Origin: Marsupella aquatica
Taxonomy: Eukaryota; Plantae; Marchantiophyta
Direction of reading: 5' to 3'
NCBI GenBank assembly: GCA_973895155.1
Contig: OZ316897.1
Coordinates: 23,287,455-23,351,454 of the forward strand
Length of the DNA: 64,000 nt
Shown in pieces: positions 29,679 to 63,285 of this stretch. Each line of letters starts with the position of its first letter. Positions within the stretch are counted from its first letter, which is position 1. The notes under the pieces were generated by a model that was given only the letters and a program-made list of their open reading frames with translations, made no database searches and was not told the DNA's origin. A program made the position numbers and the translations under genes.

Positions 29679-30075
29679 GCAGAGAACTCAAACCAAAAAC
29701 AAAAGCACGTCGCCCTTGCTTCACATTGTGGCAAGTGGCAAGTGGCAAGTGATGGAGTGCGAACTGCAAAAGTGAAAACGTAACAAGCTAAAGAACTGCA
29801 GTAAAAGTAAAAAACACAATAGCCTACATCTAGACGGAGAACGACGAGAGGAACCCCGTGAGGAACCAGACATCAGATCCGGTCGAGCACAGAAGAGAAC
29901 AGGGCATTCCCTGTCACACTTCCCCCCGATCGACCACATTTGAAGAAGACAACAGCGGCAACGTTTGTAGACTCAGAAGTTGCACAAACCGACGAAAAGC
30001 TTCACCAGATAGAGGTTTTGTAAGACCATCAGCTGGCATGATTGTTGTCGACAAGTATCGAAGTGTCACAATACC

Positions 30076-34360: not shown

Positions 34361-35149
34361 GTCTTACACAAATGGAATGGTTCCAAGAAGAATCAAAAAA
34401 TTCTAGGCCCATAACCTGTGATTCGTTAGAACAAAGACACAAAATGTGCAAGACATGAGAGCGTACACGAGAGCGCTAGGAAAAGCAGTATTCAGTATTC
34501 CGTAGATGAACTGCAACTCCCCCAAAGGGCAAAGATAAAGGGCACGATCAACCCCGCAAATAGGAGAGCCCAAGCCAGGGCGCGGCAGAGAACTCAAACC
34601 AAAAACAAAAGCACGTCGCCCCGCACGTCGCCCTTGCTTCACATTGTGGCAAGTGGCAAGTGATGGAGTGCGAATTGCAAAAGTGAAAATGTAACAAGCT
34701 AAAGAACTGCAGTAAAAGTAAAAAACACAATAGCCTACATCTAGACGGAGAATGACGAGAGGAACCCCGTGAGGAACCAGACATCAGATCCGGTCGAGCA
34801 CAGAAGAGAACAGGGCATTCCCTGTCACACCATCCAACAGTCTGTTCATATTTGAACTTAACCTTTCGAGTTAAGTATGTCAATGTAATTTTTTTTAAAA
34901 CAAGTTGAACTCCGAAATAGACATAAAGATCATCACTAAAGCACTTGGAAAGGAGTTTAACTTTCAATTTCAATCATGGGTATGGACATTGGGAGTCATT
35001 GGTATCTCAGATAAACATACAAAATTGGCACCATAACCAACTTACAAGGTTGGCAATAATTTCAGGGAGACTTGCCAACTTTTCAAAAAAGCCAAGTCTA
35101 TAAAGACATGATATCCAACCTTATCGGGGTAACATGACTGTGCCACTGA

Positions 35150-39346: not shown

Positions 39347-39349
39347 GTA

Positions 39350-39949: not shown

Positions 39950-41234
39950 AAAATTAAATATTCCAAGGAAGAACAAGAGGCTACACCACCTAGGCCATCA
40001 AAGAGGTTCAAGAAATCAACCTCTATCACTATCTCACCTAGTGAACAAGGACCAGTTCTCTCCCCAAATCCAACAGTAAAGGTGAAATTGTCTTTAGTTG
40101 GCTTATGTTGTTAAATTGATGATATGTCCAAATCAGTACTACAAGTATTTTGTTCTAACAATTTTGTGTGTGGCAGTTTTCAAAAGGAGATGGTGTAGAA
40201 GTACGAAGCGTTATGGATCGCTCTACAGTTGTTGCTAGAGGTGAAGTGACAGGGTTACAAGGAGAGGATAAATTTCATTGTGTCATGATTGAGAACCCTT
40301 GGGTGCGAGTATCAGTTAAGGCAGTGTATTGTGATGATGCAGCATTGCCAATGCCAAACAAAGAAGAGAAACAACTTTGCTTACGGGATGTGTTAGGAAT
40401 GAATACATTGTGGAATCAATGCTAGGTTTTTTTGGAAGTGATGAACATTTTCTCTGATCATGTAGAACATACAATTTTTGAATGTTTTGGTTACCATTGT
40501 TTCACTCGTGGGAGTGGAAAATGAGTACTTTCTATCACTTCATCATAAAGACTTATGTTTTTTCAATTGTTCTGTATTAGAGCTTGTGAATGGTGGAGTG
40601 TGAATTTCCAAATACAATGATGAATGATGGATAAAGTGATGTTTTTGTTTAGCGTTTTAAGTGGATTCATTGTATGTGATTTTGAATATAACTATGAGCT
40701 CCTCTTAGATACATCCCAAATGACATTACTTAAAGATATCCTGTATGACACCCTGTATGACACCATGTATGATACCTTATATGAAACCCTGTATGACACC
40801 CTATATGACACCCCATATGACACCCTGTATGACACCCTCAATGACACCATGTATGACACCCTCAATGACACCCTCAATGACACCTTAAATGGTTTATTAT
40901 TGTGTCATTTATGACATGTCTGATATGACATATCATGACAACCGTGCGTAATTACCATGTGTTGTGATATGATTTGTTTAAATGTGTCATTAAAGACATG
41001 ACCAAATGACTGACGGCCGTTCATTCAGTCATTTAAGACAACATGTCATTTCAAAAATATTGTGTCATTTAGGACTACCATAAATGACTAATGAGAGTTT
41101 TAGTCATTTGTCTTGATTGATTGTCCTAAAAGATGAGGCAGGTATGACAGGAAAGCTCTAGTCATATATTGGTACATATGACTCATTTTTCAGTCCTCAT
41201 TCTAGTCCTTTAAGACACATTTTTTCCACTAGTG
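39950..41234 (+). mobile_element. CACTA (En/Spm) 3' end with TnpA/TNP1-like exon and subterminal repeats
   Basis: ORF 40168..40425 (VVARGEV...FHCVMIENPWVRVSVKAV...LPMP...LW) resembles the TNP1/EnSpm domain. A 12-bp tandem (tatgacaccctg) lies at 40741-40885, atgac/gtcat motifs are dense, and the end ttttttccacTAGTG at 41234 is reverse CACTAGTGGAAAAAA. Confidence 0.75.
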
Positions 41235-41269
41235 GAGGTGAGGCAGTCGCCGCAGCGTCTGGAGAGGCT

Positions 41270-42340
41270 CTACGCAATAGATGGCAGGGTGGGCAGAGTT
41301 GATGCGAGGGGAGTACGGGAAGAAGGCTGCAGTGCTATCTAGGCTCCCGATGCAATGACGTTTGAAGAATGGTGTCGGGATCGGTTTACTTTGTATTGTC
41401 ATGGCACAACGGTCTGTTTCGTGCAGTCATGGCAAGAAGACCATGGAACTAGGATAAACCCTCAACCGTAAATGGTAAACCCTCAACCGTAAACATGAGG
41501 AGCCCTGGTTTGATGCCATCAAGGCTCGTGATGAGATGGCCGCACAATGCGGGGTTGTGATGAGTTGGCATTTGGAGGATGGCAGGATTGGAGTTGATCC
41601 CTTGGTGTATGCAAGGCCAAGGGACGGAGCCACAAGGAACAACGTCGGTAAACCCTAAACAATGGGGAGGGAGGGTGGGCATAGTTGATGCGAGGGGAGT
41701 ACGGGAAGAAGGCCGCAGTGTTATCTGGGCTCCCAACATAGTGATGTTTGAAGAATGGCGCGGGGATCGACTTACTTTGTAATGTTGGTTCCTTTGTATT
41801 TTCATGGCGGGACGGTCTTTTTTGGGCACTCGTGGCAAAAAGACCACGAAAAAGACTGCAAAGACCGGGCATTGCGATCGCTGGGCTCCACAAAAATGTA
41901 TATATGATGTTTGAAGGATGGTGCGGGGATCAATTTACTTTGTATTTTCATGGCACGACGGTCTTTTTTGGGCTGTCGTGGCAAGAAGACCATGAAACTA
42001 GGGTAAACCCTAAACTATAAACGATAAACCCTAAACCATAAACGCAAGGAGCCTTGGTTTGATGCCACGAAGGCTCGTGATGAGATGGCTGCACAATGGG
42101 GGGTCGTGATGAGGTGACATTTGGAGGATGGCAGGATTGGAGTTGATCCTTGGTGTATGCAAGGCCGGGGGACGGAGCCACGAGGAACAACGTCGGTAAA
42201 CCCTAAACAATGGGGAGGGAGGGTGGGCATAGTTGATGCGAGGGGAGTACGGGAAGAAGGCCGCAGTGCTATCCGGGCTCCCAACACAGTGACGTTTGAA
42301 GAATGGCGTGGGGATCGACTTACTTTGTAATGTTGGTTCC
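41270..42340. repeat. Degenerate long tandem repeat (about 540-bp duplicated unit) with taaaccctaaa motifs
   Basis: About 41430-41790 is repeated at about 41975-42340. The sub-unit gatgtttgaagaatggYgYggggatc recurs four times. Confidence 0.75.
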
Positions 42341-42662
42341 TAACAAGAAGCCTTAAGGGATGAGTCCAAAGCCTTATTTCTCTTTTCAAAATCTTCATGA
42401 TATTCAAAAATGTGTACCAAAAAACCACCAAAAAATGGTATGTATTTTCCAAACTAGACTCAAGAGAATTTTACCACCAAAATCTAAGCATATCTTATAT
42501 GATATTCTCACAATTGTATAAACCTTGAAATATGCACTTTATAAAAGTAGTCAAAATCAAACTCATCGATCAGAGTTTAAGTCAAACTCAAAGTTTTACA
42601 AAATATAACCCAACTTAACCCCAAGTGGTTTCAAATGCTACAAGTCCCCCTATTTACCTAGT

Positions 42663-45600
42663 CTAATCCAAAAGGACCGCTTCCCCTTCCTCGGTTCCGG
42701 AAGTCCCTGCCATCAATTCTGGAACAATTGTGGCATCGTCAACCACGCTATCCTCTTCGGCCTGAGGAATGTCTTCCTCACTATCCTCATCCGTCTCCCC
42801 CTGTCCGTCTTCCTCTTCAATGTTATCTGCAAGGTTAAGAATCCTCCCTTTCAACACACTGCTCTGTCGCTCGTCAATCTCAATGGCAATGCAATGTCTG
42901 CCCATGGCCAAGGAGGAGGTTGTCCCAGTCCCTGATCCTGAACAAATATCCAAAACCCAGTCTCCAACCTGACTAAAATGACTCACTTCCCAATCTAACA
43001 ATGCACGTGGTTTCTGATAGACATTCACTGCCTTGTTATCCCCGTTGTGTTTCAACTTCTTAGTCACAGCTGCGCATACAACCACATTGTTCCTGGATTT
43101 ATTTGTGTCAAAATTGAAGTGCTCCAATGACCGTTTACCATCTGGGCTGTGAAAGCCAATTGTAAAGCACTCAAAGTTGTTGTTCAATCTTGGCCCACCA
43201 GCATTCTTCACATTATCCTTAACCCTGAAAAGTCACAAAAAGTCAAGGAGTCATTTAAACTTAGAAACATGGATCATGAAATCACGAACAACTAATAATT
43301 GTTTTTTTCAAAGACAAATATTTCTTACCACACACAATTCTGGAACCCTCCATTACACTCCGCTTTCAAAACGGTCTTGATGGCCTCATATTGGTCAAGG
43401 CTGTGGTGAATGATAATACGCCACAACTTCGCAGTAGTAGCCACCTTGAAAGATTGGACCATTTTTGTGATCTCCTCAATTCCCCATCCAGTAGTGTCCT
43501 CATGAAGACATCCAGGCAATGCAAACCCGTAGGGGATATCCACTAAAGCTAATGTGTAAGCCCAACCCGGAACCACCTCGTGTAATCGCTGAGCATCATG
43601 AGAAAAATATCATAGTGCACATCACCAAACTCTGGATGCTCAAAAGAATTTGGATGAAGTTCCCCCTCTTGGGTTTGCCGACTAGAAGTCTTCATGGATA
43701 GCCAATTTTGCGCTTGCACAATATACGCATTGAATTTATCCGGGAATGACTTGAGATATTTGCCTTCCTCATCTCCCTTCTTTTTCTGGGAGGTGGTATC
43801 TTTCTACAAAAGGGAACCTTACAATTAGAAACAAGGATTCCAAATTCAATGAATTCAAACAATCATTCGAAGAAAGGTGACAAAATCTTACCCATGTCTG
43901 GAAAACAGGTATGAAATTCTTAAGCACATTGTCTGTGCAATGCTCAGGGTACTTGGTTTTACAACCTGACCAACTCTCAAACACGTGAGGAAGGCCTTCT
44001 GCACCTGCATATGAAATTTGTGTCGAGTAAATTCGTGACCCATTTCCTGTAAAGAGATTTCTTTAGTAAGAACTCTCTGTAACACTGGGCAAATCATATC
44101 AGGATCTTTCAAGGCCTGCATGTGTCTCCACTCTGTTAATTTCATGTCCTCATAAGGCAATTTGGCATCTCCAGACTTAGAAACTTTCTTCTTGCCCTTG
44201 TCTCCTTTTTGACCTTTGATCTCACACATCTCCCACTTGTCACAAATCTGCCTCACAAATGACCACACAAGATCTTGTCGGAATGCCAATTGAAATAGGT
44301 TATCGTTGGCATTAAGAACCTCAGCATCCTTTTGCACACCCCAATCCTTGAGATTGATTTCAGTAGCACACTCTTTCTTGAAATCCTGGTTGGACGACAA
44401 TCCATTCTCCACAAATCTCATGTGAATATAATTTACTCTCTGGATTGTCGTCATTTGTTGTCGAAATTCAGAATCAATATTGTGACTCCATGCCAAGTTT
44501 CTTGCCTCTTGCACACTCAATCCCGCAAATATCCAAGATTGCACTCTCCAAAATGCCTTGTTGTTAGGGAACTGAAGAGCAAGGTCTGCTTTGGCACAGG
44601 CTGAATGGTTGGCCCCAATCACATAATAATGGTAATCAGATTTCCTTGAAAAATCAAAGTGTCACATCGTCGGCTTCGGCCTTAACTCAGACTTCAGCTT
44701 AGACGGACACATCCCTCGTAAATCTGAGGGTTCGGGCAGGAAGGGAAGCACGTAATGCACCTTATTCTCGTAAACTAGCGCTAAGTGCGCATACTGCTAA
44801 ATACGGACACCTCCTAGGTATGGTTTGTGTTCCGCCGCCGGAACGTACCTTAGTCAATAGCAGGATCGACCCCGGCTTAAGGGCTTCTAAGCCTTCATGC
44901 TGTCCGCCTTCGATCCGGATTCGATGATACAGGTCCTCAACCCGTGCTTGCAACCACTTACCTGCAGGCTGCACCCTATGCACGTCTCGGGTAGTGCGTT
45001 CGGCCTAGCGCTGCCACCCATATACGAGAAACCCACACACATACACGCGCACATGCATACAATCTCCACATGATGGAACCCCGGGGGGAGATCTCCGCCG
45101 CCCAGGTTATCCAGGTCGAGAACTATCGACCTAGGAGGTGGGCGTCGTACTTCGCTAAGAAATTCCATGAAGAGATGGAGCGGCGAAGGAAGACGCTGTA
45201 CATTGGCGGGAAGGCGTATTTCGCTAGCCACATCGAGATCATTCTTGAGTGGTACGCCCGGTTTGATCGACGAACCCTTCCCCGTGTCAACATTACAAAG
45301 CTGGTCCCAGCTAGGTGGGTTTTCCCGGCCTTGGAGAGACGGCCCCAACCCGAGGCCCGAAGTCCAGCGGACACGCCAGCTTCACCCACCCCACCTCCAC
45401 AAGTAGCTGTAGTCGTAACCGAAGAGGTACCGGATGGGTCGGTTGTCGCAACCGTTGATGCGACCCAACAAGTCGGGCTAAGTACAGAAGTCGGTACGAC
45501 GGAGGTCTTACCCGAGCCAGGGTCTCCCAAAGACCCACCGGTGGCTATTTCGGAGAACCGGACATTGCTGTAGGAGGACACTCCAGCCCCTTCCAACGTT

Positions 45601-47346
45601 ACGTCCCCAGGGCTGGACGTCACTGCCCCGGCCCCCGTGCGTGTTGATGTCTGCCCATGCCCAACTCTGGACAGGCACAACCTGGACCACCCGGAACTCT
45701 TCGTACCGGGTACCTTTCTAAACGGGCTTCTGGGAGATTTCTCTCATCAAATTGCCCGGGATACCGGGGAGTTCATGGCCCGGAAGGTAGCCTGTTTCTT
45801 CAATCAGGAGTTGGTTGCCGCAGTAAAGGCAGGTCGGGCCCAGTCAGAGGCCCTTCAGAGGATAGAGCGGTACCGGGTGGAGTCCGTGTACCTAAAGAAC
45901 AAAGTTGCAGCTCAAGAGGCTAAGCTTCTGCAACTACGACCCAAGGTTGCAGTCGCCGATAAGTTGTTAGCAAAGGCGCACGCTCTTACCGCCCTAGCCG
46001 AACAGGCCAAAGCTGGGAACGAGGCCGAGATTACACGACTCCGGAACCAGATTGACAGTTTGAAGAATCAAACTGTCACCTGGCATAGCGACCCGCCGCC
46101 AGTCCGAACCTGAATTCCCCCTTATTGCCTAATGATGTCCTACCCATAATGATTACCTAAGTACTGTTGTTATGCTAATAATAGCAGCCTAAGACACTCC
46201 TAACGCGCGTGCTAAGCGCAGTTAGACCGAATCACTCATTAACCGCCGTACCGGTGGCGTCACACAAAGTCTTGCCTAGTAGCACACTCCTTCGGATCCA
46301 CCAAGAGGACAAACGGAGCTGCAAGTGGACTGGCACCTACAGTCTTCATCCGCAAGGTCAATTGGGTCAAGAAATATGGTTGGATGTGTCAAACCTGGTA
46401 AATGGGCAAGCCCCTAGCCTTCTCTCTCACTGGAGGGTAAAGTTGACCAATGTCAGCCGTCACGGTCTCCTCTTGAACACCACATCTTCCTAGAATCTCC
46501 TCCTGGTACAATACCCGTGCATCCATTGACATTGATTGAGCCTTTTGCTCCAAATGCATCGGAATTTTCTCCAAAGTCTTCTTTTTTGACTTTGGAGCAC
46601 TGGGCTCGACAGGCTCAGGAGTCATAGCAGGTCGCTTCTTTGAAGAAGTACGAGTTCCAGTCGTACCTTGTGCCGACCCACCAGTCAAAGCCGTTCCCTA
46701 GGATGATCTACCAACTTGAGATCCCCCTCCAGATGCTGCTGCTTCACAGGAGGTTGTAGGCGCTACCACGGTCAAAATGTCATCGGGTAAAATGCTAGGC
46801 CTAGATCTAGAAGGAACACCGGAAGCCCCAGATTTGGGTGGACAACTTACCCCCTTCTCTACCGATCTTTTTCGGAGAATCTCTCGCAATTTTTGGATTG
46901 CACTCTTTAAAGTGCTAGCGTGAAATTCGAACACAAAACCGGAAATCTTTCCCACGATGTCGTGGTAACGTTCCTTACTCGAAAGAGACTTGACAGTCTC
47001 AATGATGCTATCAATGTCCTCATCGAGATAGCAGGTGGCAGCCATTCTGGAAAACCTCTCCACATCCACGACAATCAAAGTCAACGTTTCCTTTGTTGTG
47101 ATCAACATGTTCACAACTTTGTCGCCCCGTCAAAATACATCAATACGGACGTAATTTACCCACTGTAATGCCCCCGATGGAAGCCCCTCAAATACACACA
47201 ACATTAGGAAGGGCTTCTTCCATGTTTCCGTCCCTAAGGAAATCGTCCAGGATGAGTTGTGGAAGTCCGTCAAAGGATGGCGCGAAAATATGTCATCCAC
47301 CAGCTCTTCCTACGACATTGTCATGTTTCCGCCTGATCTTTAAAAC
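42663..47346 (-). pseudogene. ParB-like domain plus beta-class N6/N4 DNA methyltransferase fusion gene 1 (spliced, disrupted by C insertion, stops and frameshifts)
   Basis: ParB-like region YQV*HIQPYFLTQLTLRMKTVG..PFVLLVD..YYVIGANHSACA is in frame after removing 44660-46264. MTase motifs LALVDIPYG, CVW|VKDN..NNFECFTIGF, NVYQKPRALL, GDWVLDICSGSGT..SLAMGRHCIAIEID. GT-AG introns at about 43891-43819 and 43328-43225. The 5' end is approximate. Confidence 0.8.
44660..46264 (-). mobile_element. Family C copy 2 (1605 bp, internally deleted, with an inverted internal segment), TSD CAAAG
   Basis: CAAAG at 44655-44659 and 46265-46269. Termini match C copy 1 in reverse orientation, while about 45064-46085 matches the C ORF in forward orientation. 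Confidence 0.9.
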
Positions 47347-47987: not shown

Positions 47988-48123
47988 TGTGACGCCGCCG
48001 GTACGGCGGGTAATGAGTAATTCGGTCTAACCGCGCTTAGCACGCGCGTTAGGGGTATCTTAGGCCGTTATTATTAGCATAATGACAGTACTTAGGTAGC
48101 CATTATGAGTAGGAAATCATTAG
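47988..48123 (+). mobile_element. Family C 5' terminal fragment
   Basis: tgtgacgccgccggtacggcgg...attagcataatgacagtacttagg matches the first ~135 bp of C. Confidence 0.85.
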
Positions 48124-48495: not shown

Positions 48496-49535
48496 CTAAA
48501 CAAAGTGCTCCTTACAATATTTATTTGAGCACGTGCCCTTGTCTCCTTTACTATCTACCCTAATGTCACGGTTGCAACTCCCTTTATCTTCAGGGAGATG
48601 AAATTTGGTGGTGTTGTTCCTAACTGCTATAATCTCCCGCAAAAAGTGTCTGGGATTTTCTCTATACAGACCTGAATATTCCCGTCCTACAAATGATCTA
48701 GCAAGTGAGGTGACAAGTGCATCGTCAAGTTCCACCGCAGGACGTAAGCTACATATACGTTGCTTCACAGCCCAAGGAATCTCATTGCTATTGAGGTCCA
48801 GCACACTATGCCTATACTGTGACTTCCAAATTTTTGCTGCACATCTCTTACTAAGTTGATCATAAGTAATCTCATTTTTTGCCTTGTCTCTCTTAATGTG
48901 CAATAGAGACCACTTTGGAGAGTTTAGGAGAAGATAACAACGAATGTCACTTGCATGTGACAGTTTCTCAAGACATGGCCAAAGAATTGTTAGAAGAAAA
49001 TTGTCTCCACGATTGGCATGCGTGTAGGGCACTGGAAATAGTCCGGTCATGTCTGGGTTGGCAAATGCCTTCAAGGGGGAGTCATCCACAAGGAGTGTGT
49101 TGGTTTCATCATATAGATTTCCAAATGCACTCCATACCACCCGAAAATCCTTCAATAGCACATTTGCCTTTCCATTTGTAATGTCACACCTTTGAATGCC
49201 TGTGTCAAAGGCTTCCACCTATGTGAATACAAACTTCAGTTTCAACCGCTCCTCAACAGTGAACATCATGTTCAACATTTTCACTGTCCGCGGCATCCCA
49301 GCACATGTCCAAATTGCAACGTCAAACCGGTCAAAAACCAACTTTAGAAACTCATGGAACCCTGGCCTCTGTGTATACATGCGACTAGTTCCATTTGATC
49401 TATCCCAATGCACTCCATTTGGGGTCACAATGTTTCTGGATTTGCCCTTGCTTTGGAATTCAAGTGAATCCCAAAGTATTTTGTTAAGATCCAAAATCAA
49501 CAACTTCCGCTTGATGGGACAAGGTCTCGATTCTG
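48496..49535 (-). pseudogene. FCP1/NIF-like HAD-superfamily phosphatase with one in-frame stop
   Basis: KLLILDLNKIL, RPGFHEFLKLVFDRFDVAIWTCA, LLKDFRVVW, NTLLVDDSPLKAFANP. ORFs 49219..49665 and 48496..49218 are separated by a single TAG. Probable splice acceptor ttgcag near 49533. Confidence 0.8.
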
Positions 49536-52354
49536 CAAGTGCAACAAATACAACTCTTAGAAAGAAAACCAAATTTGAACTTTGGACTGAGATTGTCTCA
49601 GTCCAAAAATACAAGACAATGACTAACAACAAAGAAAACCTACATACCATTTTTAGAAGCCCCAAAGAGCGTAGGTGGATATCGAGGCTCTAATTGCTGA
49701 CCGCATTCTGTGAGACCGAGAAGTATTTTAGATTGGTATGAAAAAATGGAAAGTCAGACGGTTTGATCTCAGTCTGAAAAAAGAGATCCGTATTCATCAA
49801 TAATGTCAACACCCAGCTCCTCTTGGATTTCAAAATTGACATCTGAAGTACTTTGTTCTACCCAATAAGGTGACGTCCAAACAGGAGTTATCAATCCCAA
49901 TTCTCCTCTCTTATACTCCTTCCTGTTAAGAATCGATGGAGCAGCATCCAATGAAACTTCTTGGCCTCTATTTGGCCCACTTTTCCACACATAACATCGT
50001 GCATCACGTTCAAGTGACCTCCATCTGGTTGATCCAACTCTATTCCCTTTTTTCTTTGAGAGAGGAAGGACAACTGGACTTCCCGAGTGTGAACGAACAA
50101 AAACCAATTTGTCATCAGAAGCTGAAAAGAGTGTGTCAGGACAAATTGAAGCACCTGCCTGGTTGTCAACAGTCGCTGATGCACGGGCTTCTGGGGTCAT
50201 GGGAATCTCACGTACTTCGACAGCCGTCCCGGGAATCAAATTTTGGGTGTCAGCTTCATTCGAATTGACCTGTCTGTCTCCACCGTCCGCGACCAAATTG
50301 GTTGACGAACGATTTTCAAATGTATCAATGTCAATCGGATCACCAATTCCGTCCGTTTCTCGTTGCACCACATTTGGATTGAGACCATCCTTGTCCAAGT
50401 TGTCATCAACCTCAACTTCATAGGGTTCCAAAGGGACGTCATCTGCACGTGATGAAGGGCGTGGTGCAAGACCAAGGTTATCATCAACATCGTAGGGTTC
50501 TATGCTTTCACTTTGACCTACACGGTCATCCAAATTCTTTGCATACGCCACCTCTGATGCCCCATCATCTTTGACTGACTTAGCGCCCACTTCTTCGGAA
50601 TTATCAGCTGATTCATGTTCGGTAGAAACATCCGTAATAGTGGGTTTCCAATGCCTAGAACTCCCACCACGAGGATCCCAATTTTCCTTGATTGAGGGGA
50701 CCCTCTCGCAAAGGAATGAAGCATACGCTTCCACAAAGTGTCTCTCATCTTGAGAGTCATAATAAACAAAGCATTCGCGTTGCACCAAGAATGCTGTCTT
50801 CATCACTTGACCACCCGAGAAAAAATCAAGAATCAAGTCTCCAGCTTCTGACAAGGATTCAATAATCCTCTGTATCATCCGCGTGGGTTTGGCATGTGGA
50901 TTCACCCAACCACCACGAGCACCAACTATCTCAAATCGAGGGGCCATGTGCAAAACCTTGGTCGCCTCTTCTGGGGTCAGCATCATTTTTAGATCTTCGG
51001 GTTTTGACACGTCGTCTGTGTCAACCTTTGCCTTCCCAGTGTCAATCTTGGTGACCTCAAAATCAGTATCTTTTGAACCAAAAAAGAATTTTGGCTTTGG
51101 ATGATTGGGTTTGAAAACATCATTCCAATTCACATTTTCATCTCGAGAAATTCCTGCGAATATAACTTCTTCAATTCCGCCTCCCCAACACGAATCAAGC
51201 GGGTGCGGTTGATCCTCTCGAGAATAACTCCCATACTCAATGTGAATGGTGAGAGATTTCTCTTGTCCCAATTTTCGAAGTGAGCTTAGGACATTCATTG
51301 CAAGAGGCCCCGAATGAACAGTTATGGCTACAACGATTGTAAGATTTCGTGGTAGCTCCACAATGTATTGCAGAAAGACCAAAACTTCTGCTTCCGTCCA
51401 CAGCTTCTGGTGATCTCGACTGAAGTCAACAATGGCAAGTGAGCACGTTGGAGATGATTCTTCTATTGCTGGTGGATCAACTGTTTTCATTAGATTGTCA
51501 CTAAAGAACGTGACCCACGGTTGGCTCCGAGAATGTGTCCCTCCGCCAAACTTCTGGCAATAAATGTCATCAAGGCGCATCACCAGAGCTATTGGCAAGA
51601 TTGCACTCTCCCTGGTATGATTTGGCTTCAACAGATTTGACAAAAAAACTTCACCAGCCGCTCTTCTGCATCTACTGAATTCTGCGTCAACACTCAACAA
51701 TGGCAGAACCTCTACAACTTTCTTCCAATCGGTATCCGAAGGGAAATTCCTTGGATCCTTGCCGAAGTAGTACTCCTCAATGAGAGACTTGAGCTTCCTC
51801 ACTTTTTTCACATCCTTCGCAAGCTCCTCTATTGAGGGTATGTCAGATTTATTTGTGGCATCTTTCTTCAGCAATGCCTTTCCTGACTTCACTTGTGTCA
51901 GGATTTTTGTGATGTCTTTCTGTGAGATCAACTCACCATCAAAGGGACGAAACATGGCAACGGTAATTGCTTTTTCGGAGTTGTTATTTCCTTCCATCCC
52001 AGCTCCATCAGGAAGTTTCCCATGCAACCACATCTCACAGACTAACCGCCACAACTCAAAAAGATCGTTGTCCGCAAAAAGTAGCCAGTATACATTTCGC
52101 AAGTCCTTCCTGCCCATAGTCATTCTTGCCAGAGCCAACCAATCCTACAATCCAAAAGGAAAGCTAGTCAGTTATCCCCAACGCAAGGGTTGGAAAAAAA
52201 GGATTCTAATGTGCGATAATAGTATTGGATTCGGATGGTCTCAATCAAAAACAAAACTCGTACTAAACATTCCAAAAGTTCCAATACTCTTTGACAAATC
52301 GTGTCGGACTGAGACCATCCGAATCCAAAATAGAATTACTCTCTATGGTAGAGA

Positions 52355-55300
52355 TGTGGTGCGTCCCATGGCTCCCTAAACCCAAGAAACCCCCCAGCTC
52401 AAGCCGATTCCCGCAGGTTTCGTGCTTGGCGAGGCCGTTTCCGCGGCTTAGCGGCATGGGACGCTGCTAACCTTCTACTACTACTATTAACATTTTACAC
52501 ACATATACTGGACAGATCCTTCATCGGGTCATGAGATACGTAGCCGGCCTAATATAGGCCTTCCCCTGTCTTCCCCTGTCTTCTTGTTAGGTATGTTTGG
52601 ATTCCGCCGCCGGAATGATCCCCAATAGGCTTGGTTAAGCCGCTAAGACCTCTCTCAGCTCGACACATCCAACTCTCACTCCCCTGCTTACTTTCCTTCC
52701 TTCTGTTGATGTGGGCACTCTTCACACAAGTTAATGCGACACACAAATAGCAAAATGACTCATTCTGACTGAGTCATACCATGCACTTGCCATACAAACA
52801 GTACATCTCATACACAAGTTCTGCGAACTAAGCCGTGAGGCCAACTCTATTCAGCTCTTAGGCATGAGGAAACATGAATATACACAAGGGTCACTGTATG
52901 ACTAACCGAGAGCTTCTCGTACTACTTGATCCCAGCCCGGCTGGTGCAAACTAAAAACTTGCTAAAGAAGAGGCCCTGAGCTCCCCGCTGCCCAGGTACT
53001 TATCCTGGTAGTGGATCCGCCATTCTTTGCATCGTAAGCCTAATCTACCTGACAGTAATCTACTTGCCCGAATCTACCTATGTACAACAAGGCAGGAGCA
53101 CAAGTGTTGCTCCTACCAGTGGGACCGCAATCCCACTAAGCTAAGTGTCAGGGCCGCTCCTGGTTCTGATCCTAATCCTAAACGTGGAGATCCGTGCCCG
53201 CCCTGCCCACTCACGCCTCCTCCCTCCACGTCCGCCCTCCCTAAAAGGAACGGCGCCCTTGCACCGTCACGACACCGGTGGTGGATCCTCAATGGACGCC
53301 CCCAACACTTCCTCCTCAGCCACTACCGTTGGCCCGCCTACTGACAGATTACCTGCCCTTGACCGAGTCAACTCTCCATCGGCCTGACTGGGTCCACCTT
53401 CGGCTTCAGCCTCAACACCGGCCTCGGCAATACCCACGGCTTCGGCCTCAGCCACTCCCACGGCTTTGGCCTCCCCTTCCCCTAGGGTAGTTGGATCCTT
53501 AGCCGTGACCCTGTCTGGGGTCGGTGCTGGGTCTACCTCCTTGATCACCACGGCCTGTGAAGTCGTATTACTCCTTGACCCTGAAGGTTTCCGCTTCTTC
53601 TTCGTTGGTGGCTCGGCAGCTGGTCCCTTCCCCTTCCCACTTACTTCCGGCACTGGTGCAGGTGGCGCGGCTTGTCCTTCGGCAATTACCACCCCTGGTA
53701 ACTGGTTTGTCCCAACGGGAGATGGACCTGCTGCAGCTAAGCATTTAAATACTGCAGCTTGTTTCTTCAGCCGCTCTGTTTGGTTGTCGGCCCGCCGCTG
53801 TAGGTTCTCCATCTTCCTCGTGATTTCCTCCAACTCCTCTTGGGTTTCATCCAGGTCCTTACGTGCCCCCTCCAGCTCGTTTTTGGCCTCCTCCTGCTCC
53901 CTGTGGGCTTCCTCCAATTCCTTCTTCAAGGTAGCCCTCTCCTCCTGGGTTGCTCTTAGCTCCTTGTCGAGCTCTGCAATGATGACAGACTCCATCTGGT
54001 TCATCTTGGCGTAAGTCTGTTCGAGCATCTCGTCCTTCTCCCTTAGGTCGGCCTTGAAGCTGGCCGTCAGGGACGCAAGCTCCTGCTGCAGCGCCATAAT
54101 CCCTTGATAGGATTTCCCTAACTCGACCTCCTTCTGCTCAAGGGCTCCGCGGATTTTCTCGAGCTCCCCTTTCAACGCCCATTCCTTTCTTTGGGTCTCC
54201 GCCATGGCCCGGCTGTTGGCTGTTATGTGGGCCTCCTCTGTATTCTTCAGCTCTTGCTTCCACTTCTCCCTCTCTTTGATCGTGTCGGCCAACTCTTCCT
54301 GCGTCTGAGTCAGTTTATCCTTGATATTCTGATTATCAGCCTGCGCGGCGTCCAACTGCCCCTGCATGATGTTCAGCTCATGTCGTTTAATCCGCAGTTC
54401 ATCCAGGGCTTTCTTGGCCGCCCTTAGATCTTCAATCTCAGCTTCCATCCTCCTAAGCCGTCGAATGACCTCGTCCTTCTTGCTTCTCTCTAAAGCCACC
54501 GCTTCTTCTAATTGGTGCTTCTCCAACTGCTCCCTATGGAAAAAGGGTCCTATCTCCAACTCCTCTCCAAAGATGCCGAGCGCAAGTTCCCCACACATCT
54601 CACCATACTCCATGGCTCTATTCTTAGCGTAGGTGGAGTAAGTAGAAGTGATCGGCATCGCCCATCGTGGCCTCTGCTCCCAAGCCGTCCTGCGGATCTC
54701 TTCAATCGTGGCTAGAGGTTTGCTTCCTTTTTCGGCTAGCCGCCTGATGTCCTCCGGCCAATCTCCTCCTGGTAAATCCTTTTCCTTAGCCAGGGCGGCC
54801 TCTTCCTCCTGCTTGATTCGCTCCTGAAATTCCTGCACCGTCTGTTTTATGCCGTCGAAGCTCGGGGGAGCAACATCTGGTGGGGGAGACTCAGGGCTAC
54901 TCTGCTGGTTGGGGTCCCCTCGCACTACCCTTGGAAGTGTGGGGACAAACCGGCCACAGGTCCTTACTCCTGGAACGTGATGGTCCGACCCATAGCCGGA
55001 ATTATCATGGCTGCAGTCCTCCACTGCCTCCTCTACCTCTTGGACGTCCGGCTTCTCCCTCTCCTCTTCGTCGGTAGGAGCTTCAGGCAATTCTGCCTCA
55101 GATTCGGAGCTTGAGGTTCCCACGTACATTCGAACACCTGGCTTGGATTCCGGCCTGATTCTCTCCTTGTTTCCAGCAAAGGGGTTTTCTCTTGTGAGCC
55201 GGTGTAGGCCTACCTCTGTAGTAGTGTCCTGCATTGTTGCCGTTGCCGTTGTTGTTGCCGATGCCGATTTCTTTTCTTTCTCCAGTAGTTTCAGCAGACT

Positions 55301-56981
55301 CTGCATGCCTGGTTGCTGCATCGGCAAGTCTTCCTTCCTGGGCCTAAACACCTGCTCGATCGTAGGACTAACAGGTGGTTGAGGTTTCTCAGCCAACGGC
55401 CTCGGCGTTGGAGCTTCCTCGGGTGCCCTTACCTGCAGGGGAAGTACCGGGGCAAAAGTCTGACCTCTGGCATACCGGCACAACAGCGGCATGTGATAGC
55501 CAAGCCGCGACACGCTCCCCATGCCGATTACCTGCTGCTCCTCCTTTAAGATCTTCTTCAATTGGTTGAGGAGGTACCCGTTGTAGTCCCGGCTTGGGTC
55601 TGGCCTTTCTGCCAGATAGACCTGTGCCTTGCCGATCTCTGCCCTCGGCAAGTTACAATGCATGGTCACCCGCAAGAAGTCGATCATCTCTCCTATGTGC
55701 GGGTTGGTGCAGGTGTTCCGGAAGAAGCCATTCTTCGTTGATGGCCCGGGGAACGACCGGAACTCCTTGTCAGGCAAGGTCTTCCTGGTATCAACTTTGG
55801 TCTTATTGCCTATCGGCAGGCCAAACACTTCGGCAATTACCTTGGGAGTAAGATAGAAATCCCTCCCATATATCCTCGTGCAATTGGTCTCGGGTTCCCA
55901 TGACCCCACGAATTCTAATAGGTCTGACTCCGGTAACTCCGGCTTCAGCCATGGTAATCTTACAAAGGCCTCCAAGCCGGATCCGGCCATGAAGCCTTGG
56001 TACTTCTTGGTCTGCATGGCCGTAAAGCATGCATCCTCCTCCCGTGCAAAATGTAGTTGCACCTCCACCGATAGGGTTGCCGCCCAGCCCTTCCAGGTGT
56101 CATCCCTGGTTGGAATGGCCTTGATGGGATCGACCTCCTCCTCTTCGGCTTCTCCCTGCCTCCTGCTCTGCTGCTCGGCTGGCTTCTTTGGTGCCGCCGA
56201 CCTCGTTCTTTTTGCCGGGGTGGCTTCATCGTTGACGGCTCCCTTCCTCTTCATCTCTGCTGCCGTGGAGGTTTCTCCTAGCACCGTTGCCTGGGTCCAC
56301 CTTTCCGTGCTACCCTTTAATTCCCAGTGTATGTCGTTGCAGTTCTTGATGGCCTCTCGGATGCCGACGACGCTGTCTTTGCAAAACAGAAGATCGTCGA
56401 GTTGATTGGAAGTAGGCGTCCACAGGAACTCGTCCTTGATGAGTTCGCCTCCTAAGAAAGCCGTCTTCTACAGCTCCCACAATCGAGCGAGCTCCTGCCG
56501 TTCTCGAGCTGCCCTTTCTGACTCCTCGTCCTCGTAAGTCTTGATGTACTCAGTTGCCCGTTCGAACAGGCATCCCCAGAAATGTGTCGCTTGATTGACG
56601 TTGCTCATACCCTCCTTAGGTCGATCGTCGGTATCTACTCTCTCCCCGAGTGCTTGCCTAAGCAGCTGACAGTAGTTGGCCTCCCGTAGTCGTCTGCCTA
56701 GTTCGTGCTCGCAAATGAGCCACCATCTCCTGCAAGCGCTCCTTACTCCTCTCCTCTGCCGGTCCTTCTTCCCGTTGATCCTTCCTAGCCGCCGACGCTT
56801 AACGCGCCCTAACCCTAATCGGGTTTTCACCCTTAGCCTTACCTCCGGCCTCTGCCCGGGTTCCATGGTTGCCCCTAATTGTTTATATTTTCCTTGTTTT
56901 GTCACTATACTAAGGTGTTCCTAGGGTGCCTTCCTGCTTTACCCACTTAACCGGCCGAGTGATTCCTGTCTAGGCATCACA
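52355..56981 (-). mobile_element. Family A copy 4 (4627 bp), TG...CA, TSD AGAGA, inserted in intron 2 of ParB-MTase gene 2
   Basis: AGAGA at 52350-52354 and 56982-56986. Nearly identical to copy 2. Its ORF (56866-53267) has one TAG at 56468. Confidence 0.95.
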
Positions 56982-58721
56982 AGAGAAATGCATACAAAGT
57001 AATCACATTTCTTACCTGAAATTTTTGGTTGTCTTGAGCATTTGTTTTGTTGTCGCCATGTTTTGGTTTGTCTGGATTTCCACATTCAACAAACTGCCGC
57101 CTCGCATGGACAACTGTATCTTTAAAGCAAGACTGAAACACCATCGTGCTATTGATGGCGTTCGATCTCATGGAGTGCTCAACAAGAATTGAAGACGGTG
57201 TGCGATCAGACAATATTCTGGATTTCCTGAATTCTAACTTCTTGGCCAACTGGGTGAGCTTGGCATCCTTTGTTGCCCAATCACGAATCCATCTCGCAGC
57301 TCTCGTAGAGTGCTGACCACTAACGGCTAGAAATTGGACCTCGCCCTTTTTCACTCCGGCCAAAAAATCCTTCCGGTCCGACTCTGTATTCTCAAAGTGG
57401 AGTACCTTTCTTCGCTCGACGTTAAAAGGAATCAAATCAGCGACATGTGGCTCATGCCCAGGTGTTTTGATCATGGAATCAGCAATGTCTTGCACATGAT
57501 CAAAATTCATCATCCGATAGCATAGTCTCGCTGGTGCGGCAAAAATACTTTCAACTGGGATCAGAAAAATTTCGTTTATCCCAAAAGTATAGTACTGCTC
57601 CATTTGTTGAAGAACTTCATTCCCTTCTAAGACGTCTTTCTCCTCTGGAGCATGTAGCCTATCACCCTCATCTTCAGCATGTAATGAAAAATCTACAGGA
57701 GTTGAATTCACAACTCCGGTGTCGGTTTTTTGTTTCTTCTTCTCCCTCGACTTCTTCTCGGCTGGAAGCTTCTTCTTCTCGGTTGGAAGCTTCTTCTTCT
57801 CGGCTGGAGCCGTGATCTTCTTCTCAACTGAAGTAGGTTTCTCAACCAGAAGCTTCTTCTCCCTCTGCTTTCGCTTCCCTGCCGCTCTATCCATGGTTGT
57901 TGCTGCAGTAGTTTGTGTTGTCTCCGTCGTAGTTGCTGGAGTTCCTTTGGCTGGCGTAGACTCAATTATTTTCTATGGTTGTGTACTTTTCCTCAACTTC
58001 ACCAAAGACTCTACCCATAGATTTGCTTTTTCCAGGTCAAGCGTGTGTGCAAAGGCTAGTGCCTTGGCGATCCAAACATTTGAGTCTGGTGACACCAGAC
58101 CTGCTTTCTCAAGCAAATTGTTAAGAGTCCATGTGGATGGAAAAGAGAACTTTGATGGGTTGTTTACAATGTTGAGTTTCAAATAAAGAAACCCATAAAA
58201 AATGTCCAAAGGAAGCATTCCCTTCAGTCCTCCAATAATCTTCTCCTTTGTGTAGGATTTTGGAAAGAATCCCATCGACAACACACTTAATTCCCCACTT
58301 GCATACCATTCCACATTGAACTCGGCCGAGAAAGCCTTTGTGGGGAGCTGCAACTTTGCCCACCTCATCGTGTCCGACACCTCTACAATGATAGAATTCA
58401 TTCCTCTTCCTATCATTCCCACAGAGACCACGGGTCCGATGACCAATGTTTGGTTGTTGCCTGTCCTGATCTTGACACATAACACTGGATCCTGAATGTT
58501 AAATGAATTCAGGCGGAAGTTAACTCGCGAGAACTCAAGTCCCTACCGAAATCCTGGATCGCGGTCCTCCAAAATGAGCCCATCGTCGCAGTCTGCCTCT
58601 GAAATGGCAAGAGTTGTATTCACCAGATCACTCTCTGCATAGGAGAGTGAAAATTCATATTAGACTTCAAATCCATGAAATTTGTTTTAAGAAATCACTG
58701 TCAAAGTGAGATTGAAGGCTC

Positions 58722-59295
58722 TTGGATTCGGACCATCCGAATCCAATACAAGAAGCCCACTTGGATTCGGATGGTCCGAATCCAAACAACCCTCTTAGAT
58801 TCGGACCATCTGAATCCAATCAAGCCACTTGGATTCGGATGGTCCGAATCCAAACAACCCTCTTGGATTCAGACCATCCGAATCCAATCAAGCCACTTGG
58901 ATTCAGACCATCCAAATCCAAACAACCCACTTGGATTCGGATGGTCCGAATCCAAACAACCCTCTTGGATTTGGATGGTCCGAATTTAAACAACCCTCTT
59001 AGATTCAGACCATCCGAATCCAAACAACCCACTTGGATTCGGATGGTCCAAATCCAAACAACGCTCTTGGATTCGGACCATCCAAATCCAAACAACCCAC
59101 TTGGATTCGGATGGTCCAAATCCAAACAACCCTCTTGGATTTGGATGGTCCGAATTTAAACAACCCTCTTAGATTCAGACCATCCGAATCCAAACAACCC
59201 ACTTGGATTCGGATGGTCCGAATCCAAACAACGCTCTTGGATTCGGATGGTCCGAATCCAAACAATGCTCTTGGATTCGGACCATCCGAATCCAA
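58722..59295. repeat. Array of 17 copies of the 25-bp palindrome TTGGATTCGGA-(CCA/TGG)-TCCGAATCCAA, 34-bp period
   Basis: Copies start at 58722, then 58761 and every 34 bp to 59271. Linkers are 9 bp (acaacccWc-like). Confidence 0.95.
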
Positions 59296-59589
59296 CAACT
59301 TAAGATGCATGAATAAACCTCTGGGAACTTACTTTGGACTTGAGATTGAAATTCTTGGGAATCCCTAAGCGCTAGGGCCACAAGATCACCGACAGAGGAG
59401 AGATCCAAGTCATCAAATTCTTCGGCGAGAAGGACAATGACGGTTTTCTTGGCAACTTCCATTTTTAGGAGTGACACGTGGCAGGATATACTGAGGACAC
59501 GTCAAGATGGGCAAGATCTAGGGCGTTGCAGCAGATTAGGGCAAGAAGGCAATTAGGGCAAGGGCAAGGGATAGCGGCGGCAGCCAGCC

Positions 59590-59720
59590 AAGAGCGAGAG
59601 CGAGGAGCGAGAATGAGGAGCTAGAGCGAGAGCGAGGAGCGAGAGGGAGGAGCTAGAGCGAGAGCGAGGAGCGAGAGGGAGGAGCGAGAGGGAGGAGCGA
59701 GAGTGAGGAGCGACAGAGAG
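59590..59720. repeat. GA-rich low-complexity repeat (gagcgagag/gaggag) in a probable divergent promoter or 5'UTR region
   Basis: Tandem gcgagag variants between the two divergently oriented genes. Confidence 0.7.
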
Positions 59721-60489
59721 AAAACAACAATGAGGTCTGTGGAAGACCTCGTCCTCCCTTTACCCCCTCCTGAAAGGCTTGTTTGCGTACGGATGATCGC
59801 TGCACGGATCATCTCTGTACGGATCATCTCTATACGGATAGAGACCAAGAAGGGATCTGGTCCTATCAGTTTGGGTGGGACGCTAGCTGTATTGTCTAAC
59901 ACAATGGATTGAAAAAGGATTGGATGATTGTTCTAACCGCGATACTCGGTGTTGCCTCAACCTTATCGGATCGCACATTCAGGGCCGAACATACCAACCC
60001 ACGAGTATAAGAGGTACTCTACAGACATCATTGTTGTTTTAGTTTCATATCTTCACTTGGGCATCCAGGTCTGCGCAACTCCTCCTCAGCTCTTCTCTCT
60101 GATGGAGTTTAGACTTGAAGTGACTTTGATAGCTTTCTTAGTCAGATTGATATGAACTTATTCATCAATTTAGAGGTAGCAGAGCCAACCTTGGAGACAT
60201 ACTGGAAAAACAAGACTGCTGAGGTGAGTTATGGTCTTAGTCGCTTTGCTTATTTTGAGTTCTTAGGGAAGAGAGACGAACCCTTTCACTTTGTTCTGCA
60301 TTCTAGTGACTTCCCAATTATTATTTCACGAATTACCCAATGTTCCGAAAAACCCGGAATGTCTAAATTTGATTAGGAAGAGATCTCAATCTCAATATAT
60401 CCATCTCAACATAATCTTCATTGTGGAGTTAGACCATTTGAATCCAGACTTGATGTGTGGATTATAATGGTCCTAATCCTAGATTGTTG

Positions 60490-61550
60490 TTTGGATTTGG
60501 ATGATCCAAATCCAATCCATTTCTAGGATTGGGACCATCTGATCAGATTCCAATCTTGGTTTGGATTCGGATGGTCCGAATCCAAGAGGGTGTGTTGGAT
60601 TCGGACCATCCGAATCCAACCGTGCAATGCTTAAATTGTGACCTTTGGGATCCAATCTCGGTTTGGATTCGGACCATCCCAATCCAAGCGAGATGGTAAA
60701 TACAGTCTGGTTTTTGATTTGGATGGTCCGAATCCAAGAGGGTGTGTTGGATTCGGACCATCCGAATCCAAGCGTGCAATGCTTAAATTGTGGCCTTTGG
60801 GATCCAATCTCGGTTTGGATTCGGACCATCCCAATCCAAGCGAGATGGTTGAATTTGGGCGTTTTAAATACAGTCTGGTTTTGGATTCGGATGGTCCGAA
60901 TCCAAGAGCGTGTGTTGGATTCGGACCATCCGAATCCAAGCGTGCAATGCTTAAATTGTGACCTTTGGGATCCAATCTCAGTTTGGATTCGGACCATCCC
61001 AATCCAAGCGAGATGGTTGAATTTGGGCGTTTGAAATACAGTCTGGTTTTGGATTCGGACCATCCGAATCCAAGTCCGATGCTTAAATTGGGACCTTTGA
61101 AATACAATCTTCGCGCACCATCCCAATCCAAGCCGGTTTGTTGAATTGGGACCTTCGGGATAGAATCTGTGTTTGGATTCGGACCATCCGAATCCAAGAT
61201 GGTGGGTTGGATTCGGACCTTTGAAATACAATCTGGTTTTGGATTCGGACCATCCGAATCCAAGCCCGGTGCTCAAATTGGGACCTTTGAAATAAAATCT
61301 GGGTTTGGATTCAGACCATCCCAATCCAAGCGCGTTTGTTGAATTGGGACCTTTGGGATCCCATCTGGGTTTGGATTCGGACCATCCAAATCCAAGAGGG
61401 TGTGTTGGATAGAGGTTGGTTTGGATTCGGACGATCCCAATTCAAGCGAGATGCTTAAATTTGACCTTCAGAATAAAATCTTCATGGTTTTGATTTGGAC
61501 CACCGGCCCCAATCCAAGCGTGATAGTTGAGCCAATGTTTGGATTCTCAG
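60490..61550. repeat. Second array of the same 25-bp palindrome in higher-order units of about 155-165 bp
   Basis: Roughly twenty ttggattcgga-nnn-tccgaatccaa copies or variants, interleaved with repeated linkers (gcttaaattg, aatacagtctggtttt). Confidence 0.9.
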
Positions 61551-61640
61551 AATGGCAATCAAATGACCGTATGGATAATTGTGAGTCTCTTCAAATTCTT
61601 GTCATTCGGATTTGTGATGGTTTTTCTGAAAATTGTGCAG

Positions 61641-63285
61641 GTTACTAAATCCGAGAATGACTAGAAGGTTTTCAAGAGGTGATGATGTGACCTTGACAAT
61701 TGATGGAGATGATGTCGGTTGTGGGACAGTTCAGAAAATTAACCCCCAGGATAGGGTGCACAACATATTGTTGGGGGATAATCGAATTGGTGTGCTCATG
61801 GAGAAGGTTTTCGAGCCAACTCGAAAACTACCATTTCCACTACCAAGGGTAGAAAATCTTTTTGATGCCATTGACTCATGTGTTATTTGGGAGATCTCGT
61901 GCGCGTATCTCTCTATAACTCTAGATTCCCAAAAACGCATCAGTACTGGTAGTTGTTCAACTCGACCAGATAATAACTTGGATAAATCTCCTACAATTGT
62001 TATGGAGGATGCATCAAACACTCTAAGGCAAGGGGACGAGGTTGAAATGCTCATTGATGGGTGTTGTGTAGCCCTTGGAGTTATTTTCAAGGTAAATCCA
62101 AAGGACCGATGTCACAACATATTACTTGGTGAGTCTCGGATCAGTGTGAAAATCACTGATGTTATTCATGGTAGTAAGGCTTTACCTTACATACACAATG
62201 GGGCTGAAACAATTGAAGAGACAAAAGACTCATGGGTTCTCTGGGACTTGGCCGATGTTCATAAAAAAGGTTGGAATGTTGATGAAGGTAGAAAGTCTTC
62301 CTCTAAGAAGCAAGGTGATGGCGACGTTTTAATTGAGGAGAGTTTTGTCTCACATTCTCCATCAACAAAATCGACCAAAACTCATTCTGATTATTACCAA
62401 CGGTCCAATTGGATGTCAGAGTTGGTCGAATTATACATTGGTTCAGGACGATCGAGTAAGGTTGCCACTGGGACTATCACTGTGCCTCAAGCAACGGCGG
62501 CTGTTGATGATGAAATCCTGGGAGAAGACTATGTAGGGGTTGTTGTGAAAGATGTCATGGAATCGCAATACTTTCCAAGCATTCACAAGGGAGTAATTAG
62601 TTTGGTTCGATGGCGAATTGATCACACAAAACTAGTAGCAACTGGAAAAATTTTGTCAGACATTCTGGTAGAAGGTACAGAGAATATGGAGTCAATGGAT
62701 AGGGATGATCTGAATCCGGATCATGTGGTTGGATCCGCATCCGGATGTCGTCAAAGGCCATATAACTTCAACAAGAGGAATCAAGTTGATCCTGTTGAGA
62801 AGAAAAGGAGGCTCTTGCAAACCAAGGCAGTTTCAAAAACAACAGAAGCCGCAATTGATGAGATCAAAAGAGTAAATTGCTGCAAGCATAAATGTTGTCT
62901 CATTATGCCAAGGGAAGATATAGAAGATGTTAGGATGGAATTTCACGGGATGTCTAGCGAGTCCAAAACATCACACATTTTCAACCTCTTCCACTACAGA
63001 GAGGATGATGTTCGTGATAAGGGACACCATGTTCTCAAAGGTATGGTCATCTGTAAAGATGCATTTGCAACCATCCATGGTTTTAGTCACACCAAGTATT
63101 ATGATTACAAGAGAAGATACATGGAGGGTTGCAAAATTGGGTTCCATGGGAACACAGGCTTGAAGAAAACAAGGTCAAATACCTTGCATGCGCGAGCTCT
63201 TCTAGAGGCATTTCTGACTCAAAATGCAGAGCCAATGCCTCATATGCCTTATGGAGGGGCCCATGGGACAGACAGCATTGAGTAT
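61641..63285 (+). CDS. Putative DNA transposon protein: three TNP1/TnpA-like domains followed by a Sola-like (DUF7869-associated) transposase N-terminal region; interrupted by family B
   Basis: Three repeats of G.V...dp...hn..LG.....V....V......LP; then CCKHKCC..EDVRMEF..VICKDAFATIHGFS..FHGNTGLKK..AEPMPH. Acceptor tgcag at 61640. The catalytic core is not in the window. Confidence 0.55.

Follow-up and report, generated by a model that had tools for sequence, protein, structure and literature searches.

We analysed 64,000 nucleotides of the liverwort Marsupella aquatica (contig OZ316897.1, positions 23,287,455 to 23,351,454; hereafter the window), and concentrate here on one gene on its minus strand (gene 2, 49769-59462), which carries VDFSR where amino-methyltransferases (amino-MTases) have their catalytic DPPY motif. 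Gene 2 represents a real and conserved pseudo-methyltransferase family which stands beside a paralogue with an intact-looking motif, DIPY (gene 1), and which is likely the cargo of a transposon. Across the sequences compared, the erosion of the motifs is a property of a whole clade in two liverwort genera and not the decay of one copy. As the best overall explanation we propose, tentatively and with slightly less than an even chance of being right, that gene 2 encodes the non-catalytic half of a predicted heterodimer which would methylate the element's own DNA.

Gene structure and state of the window copies

The splice model of gene 2 is based on phase, GT/AG ends and spliced homologues. Its three exons (130, 1619 and 2376 nt) join to 1,374 codons; they and the insertion between the last two are:
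59333-59462, minus strand: exon 1, with the ATG at 59462 and a phase-1 donor
57016-58634, minus strand: exon 2, with the N-terminal domain, a Lys-rich linker and the predicted ParB/Srx-fold domain (about 57600-57154)
49769-52144, minus strand: exon 3, with a helical region, the predicted beta-class pseudo-MTase domain (about 51532-50678), an acidic disordered linker and the C-terminal domain
52355-56981, minus strand: 4,627-bp TG...CA insertion of the long terminal repeat (LTR) type in intron 2, with an AGAGA target duplication and an open reading frame (ORF) at 53267-56284

An earlier note, made from the letters alone, had described 49769-59462 as a gene whose three exons join in frame. The exons, their GT/AG ends and the compatible phases stand, but the frame is interrupted by two premature TAG codons in exon 2 (58545 and 57975), and 4,627 bp of the 9.7-kb span are the insertion, which is 98% identical to 25019-29678. 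A 1,005-aa ORF considered as a part of gene 2 was rejected, as it belongs to this insertion. Both stops are private to the window copy: at 58544 a sense codon is found in all contig depth of four out of four public runs, and at 57975 in all depth in three runs and in 175 of 198 in the fourth. Because nearly all contig depth has a sense codon at both sites, the frame of the family is open and the window copy is mutated. The window copy of gene 2 is dead, while the gene itself is real.

Along the joined frame lie SGQHS (codon 482, 57321-57307), VDFSR (codon 822, 51430-51416), VNPHAKP (codon 997, 50905-50885) and DFFSGG (codon 1023, 50827-50810). The spliced protein P0002 from Calypogeia fissa spans the joint of exons 2 and 3, and the unspliced relative P0218 (1,009 aa) holds the ParB part and the MTase part within a single ORF; together they support the ParB-MTase fusion in gene 2. 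P0218 is without the N-terminal domain of gene 2 (57976-58634), which found no match in the libraries or among the relatives compared, including the gene-1 profile and P0211. At the other end, 3' of the disordered linker, a C-terminal domain of about 120 aa (49769-50150, SSDKLV...EYGS) is conserved in close relatives and matches no known family.

Gene 1 lies on the same strand:
42663-47318, minus strand: gene 1, ParB-like (GANHS) and beta-class MTase with DIPY (43540-43529) and CSGSG; a broken copy
44660-46264, no strand: 1,605-bp TG...CA insertion in the coding sequence of gene 1, with a 5-bp CAAAG duplication

In addition to the insertion, the 5' part of gene 1 holds four stops, and the frame changes ahead of DIPY; contigs of three of the four runs join across the insertion and represent the empty site. 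Since both genes are broken in the window, the question concerns the family. The two genes together span 16.8 kb, in agreement with the earlier figure of 17 kb. An architecture common to both had also been claimed, which holds in so far as SGQHS, VNPHAKP and DFFSGG are present in gene 2, but gene 1 has GANHS and not SGQHS. The CSGSG loop of gene 1 is normal, and its type combines an intact-looking motif with putative activity.

Eroded motifs throughout the clade

In a profile alignment of the two types (hhalign 90.7%, E 1.3e-6, 200 columns) VDFSR of gene 2 is in register with ADIPY of the gene-1 type, so that its reading as the DPPY-equivalent was right, and FSG-GQ is aligned to CSGSGT. The types had been said to align only at motifs; this fails for the roughly 200 columns of the MTase domain, while the ParB and helical parts align weakly (15.7%). 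Motif IV of gene 2 is DFSR, not (D/N/S)PP(Y/F/W), and motif I is eroded too (FSGGQ, without FxGxG), a feature absent from the earlier note.

A profile search over 1.84 billion representatives gave 238 matches at E 0.001, 150 of which are listed; the following counts are among these. Motif IV is covered by 48 matches, with Asp in 44, Pro at place 2 or 3 in none, and at place 4 Arg, His or Lys in 42 and an aromatic residue in one. Of the 59 matches that cover motif I, none has FxGxG and FSGG occurs in 44. No conserved acidic residue follows strand 2, the nearest place having Asp in 19 of 55, and the Lys of motif X is present in 57 of 58. Because the profile was built on DFSR-type rows, and a DIPY protein scores 15 bits there, this census favours the DFSR clade and shows a uniform clade, not the ratio of the types. 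The decay of a single copy was considered as the origin of VDFSR and rejected, the motif state being the same across the clade.

The residues lost in gene 2 (the prolines, the stacking aromatic residue and the loop for S-adenosylmethionine, SAM) are those assigned to catalysis and SAM binding (PMC7544214). With their loss the features assigned there to catalysis and cofactor binding are gone, and the DFSR type is very probably without catalysis, as judged from its sequence. The relatives of gene 2 share identities of 18-45% with fixed motifs, which argues for long-term constraint on a non-catalytic role. A tree of 37 of 165 aligned rows (at least 150 residues in the domain; three near-duplicates dropped) together with the window protein and P0217 contains several subclades which are deep and starred; Riccia sorocarpa has at least three, and the placement of the DIPY row is unsure. 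Much as had been supposed, census and tree support a family that has diversified into a type with an intact motif and a clade with eroded motifs.

Predicted folds of gene 2

The model of exon 3 was built from 10 sequences (mean predicted local distance difference test, pLDDT, 57; core blocks 54-83). It shows a seven-strand MTase fold of the beta class, which agrees with the earlier assignment of the C-terminal region: RsrI (E 6.4e-8) and CcrM (E 1.6e-7) were found with Foldseek, and in VIA the model matches CcrM with Z 17.6 (root mean square deviation, rmsd, 3.9, 212 aligned), MboIIA with 16.9 and the rotifer N4CMT with 15.0, followed by MT-A70 proteins (9-12) and a remainder below 6. PF01555-type enzymes reach Z 14-18, and the first 11 rows are all bacterial-type beta-class MTases or N4CMT. 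The motif order IV - target recognition domain - X - I is that of beta-class amino-MTases. Against the PF01555 profile of Pfam gene 2 scores 26.2 bits (E 8.9e-6), below the gathering score of 26.7, which the gene-1 type passes (37 and 32.7 bits).

For exon 2 (22 sequences, pLDDT 78-96 within the ParB/Srx domain) Foldseek gave no match at E 0.001 (best E 0.011 or higher), with Noc, ParB, Srx, KorB and SbnI as the leading rows. In VIA the top eight rows are ParB/Srx proteins with Z 5.3-8.0 (PadC: rmsd 3.1, 96 aligned) and the next rows have 3.2 or lower; these Z values are near the level of chance folds, and the claim is carried by the agreement among the rows. By sequence profile gene 2 has no ParB match in Pfam, NCBIfam or PHROG. 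On these models gene 2 is predicted to combine a ParB/Srx-fold domain with a beta-class amino-MTase fold. The usual nucleotide motif of ParB CTPases is GxxR. The motif-bearing rows have GQHS, GAHS or GNHS in its place, and both types read GQHS or GNHS, which makes nucleotide turnover by the ParB-fold domain doubtful. The matches in the ESM Atlas are all below 0.9 and serve as leads only.

Relatives and co-occurrence of the two types

Thirty relatives were looked up by identity, and all organism-named ones come from the liverworts C. fissa or R. sorocarpa. C. fissa is represented among the relatives by two accessions of the gene-1 type and seven of the gene-2 type, so that the two types co-occur in one other genome, contrary to the refuting condition of the earlier note that they never do. 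In R. sorocarpa two different eroded subtypes (P0151 and P0166; R1sor_008243 and R1sor_008251) are 8 gene tags apart, a hint that some elements may carry two or more eroded paralogues. Pattern A1 was found in none of the viral contigs and at one 1.8-kb locus in the JGI metagenomes, too short for neighbours; pattern A2 was found in no prokaryotic or viral contig.

A putative large transposon around both genes

The neighbours of the two genes are:
48496-49665, minus strand: FCP1/NIF-like phosphatase gene with one in-frame stop (49219-49221)
58722-59295, no strand: array in intron 1 of gene 2, 17 copies of a 25-bp palindrome, TTGGATTCGGA-NNN-TCCGAATCCAA, with a 34-bp period and two GANTC per unit
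60491-61445, no strand: second array, 16 copies of the intron 1 palindrome, upstream of the transposase-like ORF
61633-63285, plus strand: transposase-like ORF with three repeats of about 80 aa and a Cys-rich part, divergent and upstream of gene 2

The order on the minus strand is gene 2, phosphatase gene and gene 1, and in the Riccia models P0106 and P0166 a pseudo-MTase is fused to FCP1 in the order of the window. The transposase-like ORF has a single Pfam match, to TNP1/EnSpm (E 0.001, below the cut-off), and is interrupted at 63286 by a repeat of which another copy lies at 4081.

In total the palindrome occurs 34 times in the window (17 in the intron 1 array, 16 in the second array and one in intron 2), compared with none in 100 shuffles. 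GANTC is enriched in the arrays, with 26 against 2.5 expected in intron 1 and 29 against 8.2 in 59463-61632, and is not enriched in the genes; a link to the site of CcrM is a lead only. The palindromes are candidate binding sites of the ParB-fold proteins or of the transposase.

Deep, near-identical contigs from four of four runs cover every part between 44 and 64 kb. In X1 these parts have a contig depth of 150-570, compared with 10-24 for single contigs that have diverged. The depth of gene 1 (540-574 in X1, 5,042-5,326 in X2) resembles that of the 3' end of gene 2 (523 in X1, 5,736 in X2), a likeness which is only a hint, as contig depth is no copy number. In X1 and X2 the depth has a step within gene 2, between 50026 and 50760, and this pattern fits one element with internally deleted derivatives.

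Gene 1, the FCP1-like phosphatase gene, gene 2, the 34 palindromes and the truncated transposase-like gene thus probably belong to one large multicopy DNA transposon. A single large element with both genes is more likely than the two related transposons which had been offered before. A pair of terminal repeats flanking gene 1 was looked for and not found. To the left of gene 1, imperfect tandem units of about 549 bp with AAACCCTAAAC motifs (41235-42350) may be the terminal region of the element. Next to them lies the CACTA-type end of a neighbouring element (40150-41234) with an CACTAGTG terminus, 12-bp subterminal repeats and a fragment that is related to the repeats of about 80 aa in the transposase-like ORF at 61633 (E 4e-5, four-sequence comparison); the terminus at 41234 is probably that of the element on the left.

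Proposed explanation and alternatives

Beta-class MTases are dimeric, with one subunit recognising and the other methylating, and eukaryotes turned such dimers into active/eroded pairs, as in METTL14 with its eroded motif IV beside the active METTL3 (PMC7544214). By analogy, a large multicopy DNA transposon would carry gene 2 as an accessory gene beside its intact-motif paralogue, the DFSR protein would serve the DIPY protein as a scaffold or as the subunit that targets it, and the pair would mark the element's own DNA with adenine methylation, perhaps at the palindromes. That the DFSR type pairs with the DIPY type, one of the two options in the earlier note, is a tentative suggestion, somewhat short of an even chance. 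Adenine rather than cytosine as the target, binding of the ParB-fold protein to the 25-bp palindromes and an anti-silencing outcome are leads only. In its most explicit form the proposal reads as a transposon-encoded two-subunit adenine methyltransferase of liverwort giant DNA transposons. An early duplication of a phage-type ParB-MTase would have given rise to one active and one dead subunit, in a split like that of METTL3/METTL14 but of independent origin, and the two together would load on the GANTC palindrome arrays and write N6-methyladenine (6mA) on the element, in a lineage regarded as having lost 6mA; we regard this full version as rather unlikely.

Several observations weigh against a heterodimer carried by a single element. 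The transposase is truncated and its Pfam match is sub-threshold, no element ends or target duplication were found within the window (the right end is outside it), a 136-bp LTR fragment (47988-48123) lies between gene 1 and the phosphatase gene, and the contig depth of the gene 2 body is 2-5 times below that of gene 1 in X1 and X2. The accessions of the two types in C. fissa are not neighbours by number. From Riccia no DIPY-type protein was recovered in word-limited searches covering close relatives only, and the 11 Riccia accessions of eroded types that were recovered represent three or more deep subclades. The DIPY motif is itself at variance with the consensus (D/N/S)PP(Y/F/W) and was found in two sequences only (the window and P0217), and the model of the MTase domain in exon 3 is of moderate confidence, with pLDDT below 50 at 310-323 and 346-416.

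The eroded protein could act alone as a DNA-binding or base-reading transposon factor without contact to the DIPY protein, for example as a VANC-like anti-silencing or transposition regulator which uses a ParB clamp and an MTase-fold nucleotide pocket on the palindrome arrays. Several deep eroded subclades coexist in Riccia, where two are separated by 8 gene tags and a DIPY type was not recovered; this would suit such a factor, as would the position of the arrays in and beside gene 2 and not gene 1, and the targets of VANC form tandem repeats in the non-coding parts of its element (PMC5735166). However, the dimer-forming beta-class scaffold is retained over about 200 columns, a paralogue with an intact motif follows 2.4 kb downstream in the same orientation, and the searches for DIPY were limited to close relatives. 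We hold a stand-alone role, the main alternative, to be somewhat unlikely. Still less probable is that nesting in a repeat-rich region brought together two separate transposon families, of which one had the DIPY gene and the other the DFSR gene, the phosphatase and the transposase. The difference in depth between gene 1 and the gene 2 body, the LTR fragment in the gap, the many nested insertions in the window and the lack of a bridging contig among those listed speak for nesting; against it, the step in depth seen in X1 and X2 falls within gene 2 instead of in the gap between the genes, no pair of terminal repeats was found to flank gene 1, and both genes share one strand with compact spacing.

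The lost residues bear on a further alternative, in which the DFSR clade is an active enzyme with a changed chemistry or substrate, with a non-canonical motif IV that uses the kept Asp and a basic residue, and with another cofactor or a protein or RNA substrate. Among the matches listed the Asp of motif IV (44 of 48) and Arg, His or Lys at place 4 (42 of 48) are indeed maintained, and the motif X Lys and the GG loop are strongly kept, but the base-stacking aromatic residue, both prolines and FxGxG are lost, the acidic residue after strand 2 is not conserved, and the lost residues are among those to which catalysis and SAM binding have been assigned (PMC7544214); we consider this quite improbable. 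A decayed host gene, or the chance erosion of a single pseudogene, would account for the two stops and the insertion in the window copy. It is largely refuted and barely credible, because the motif state is common to the clade in two liverwort genera and other copies have sense codons at both stops.

Comparison with known systems

The closest described system to our proposed element is, by anatomy, the giant Plavaka (EnSpm/CACTA) element of the red alga Bostrychia with its accessory genes PAG2 and PAG3 (10.1101/2025.02.11.637652), although here the transposase core and the termini are missing. Like the element proposed here, it is a large DNA transposon with a PF01555 amino-methylase, a ParB-like gene and adjoining tandem inverted-repeat arrays (10.1101/2025.02.11.637652), and the window has the Plavaka-like features of multiple copies, accessory genes and inverted-repeat arrays. 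In Bostrychia the ParB-like gene was found by remote search only, and self-modification was proposed (10.1101/2025.02.11.637652). There the methylase is described as fused to SET and ParB to a 2-oxoglutarate oxygenase, whereas in the liverwort ParB and methylase form one protein. Unlike what is described for Plavaka, the ParB-methylase is present twice with one type eroded, an FCP1-like phosphatase gene lies between the two, and the host is a land plant.

A putatively active and an eroded paralogue in one genome, as in the window and in C. fissa, are also known from METTL3-METTL14 and MTA1-MTA9, while CcrM, EcoP15I and RsrI are homodimers (PMC7544214). The MT-A70 pairs are described as host genes of another clade; the liverwort proteins are PF01555-type, ParB-fused and located on a repeat, and their pairing is a prediction. 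Phage ParB-MTase fusions of ParB-terminase loci likewise have ParB N-terminal to the amino-MTase (PMC4738411), and the best viral matches include an MTase of a phage that is labelled ParB (BFVD A0A6J5MMM5, E 3.8e-7). In contrast to the phage fusions as described, the liverwort genes are eukaryotic, intron-bearing and more than twice as long, and the pattern scan found no close relative in viral or prokaryotic contigs.

MpDN4MT1 of Marchantia and the bdelloid N4CMT are bacterial-origin beta-class amino-MTases in a liverwort and an animal, and unlike gene 2 they are domesticated writers of N4-methylcytosine (4mC) (10.1101/2021.02.12.428880, PMC8885841). The Marchantia enzyme is described without extra domains, and N4CMT has SPPY (PMC8885841). 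The DAM domains of DIRS/LTR retrotransposons are, like the proposed pair, transposon-borne adenine methylases, and the DIRS1 copies are described as likely inactive (PMC4738411, 10.64898/2026.05.21.726589); these belong to another MTase group and to retroelement polyproteins, with neither ParB nor a paired paralogue. Like the element proposed here, VANDAL/VANC is a DNA transposon with tandem repeats in its interior and a protein of accessory function; VANC is not described in PMC5735166 as a methyltransferase or ParB protein.

No description of a liverwort ParB-MTase family was found in the literature searched; the supplements of the Bostrychia preprint (accessory-gene element table) were outside its scope and could affect how new the family is. 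Few adenine methylases and an absence of genomic 6mA have been described for land plants (PMC4738411; 10.64898/2026.05.21.726589). If our explanation is true, bryophyte elements with a ParB-methylase pair of their own would carry their epigenetic mark with them by a new route. It would also mean that an active/dead pair of the beta class arose independently, and would offer a pool of liverwort amino-methylases that merits comparison with the domesticated Marchantia 4mC enzyme. Because the palindrome arrays are a concrete candidate substrate, the idea of self-marking is directly testable.

Other insertions and genes in the window

The window is intron-bearing plant DNA full of nested repeats. 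Further copies of the 4.6-kb TG...CA unit inserted in intron 2 of gene 2 lie at 7924-12595, 25019-29678 and, as a partial copy, 38044-39348. The unit has 5-bp target duplications and the look of a solo LTR, and its contigs are very deep in four runs. It encodes an ORF of up to 1,207 aa with a coiled-coil C-terminal half and no Pfam family above the cut-off; such a long ORF inside an LTR-sized unit is unusual. A copia element comprises 30076-34830 together with 24846-29919, its left LTR being split by the 4.6-kb insertion at 25019. Among these repeats lies an open gene for a PPR-DYW RNA-editing factor (19063-21927).

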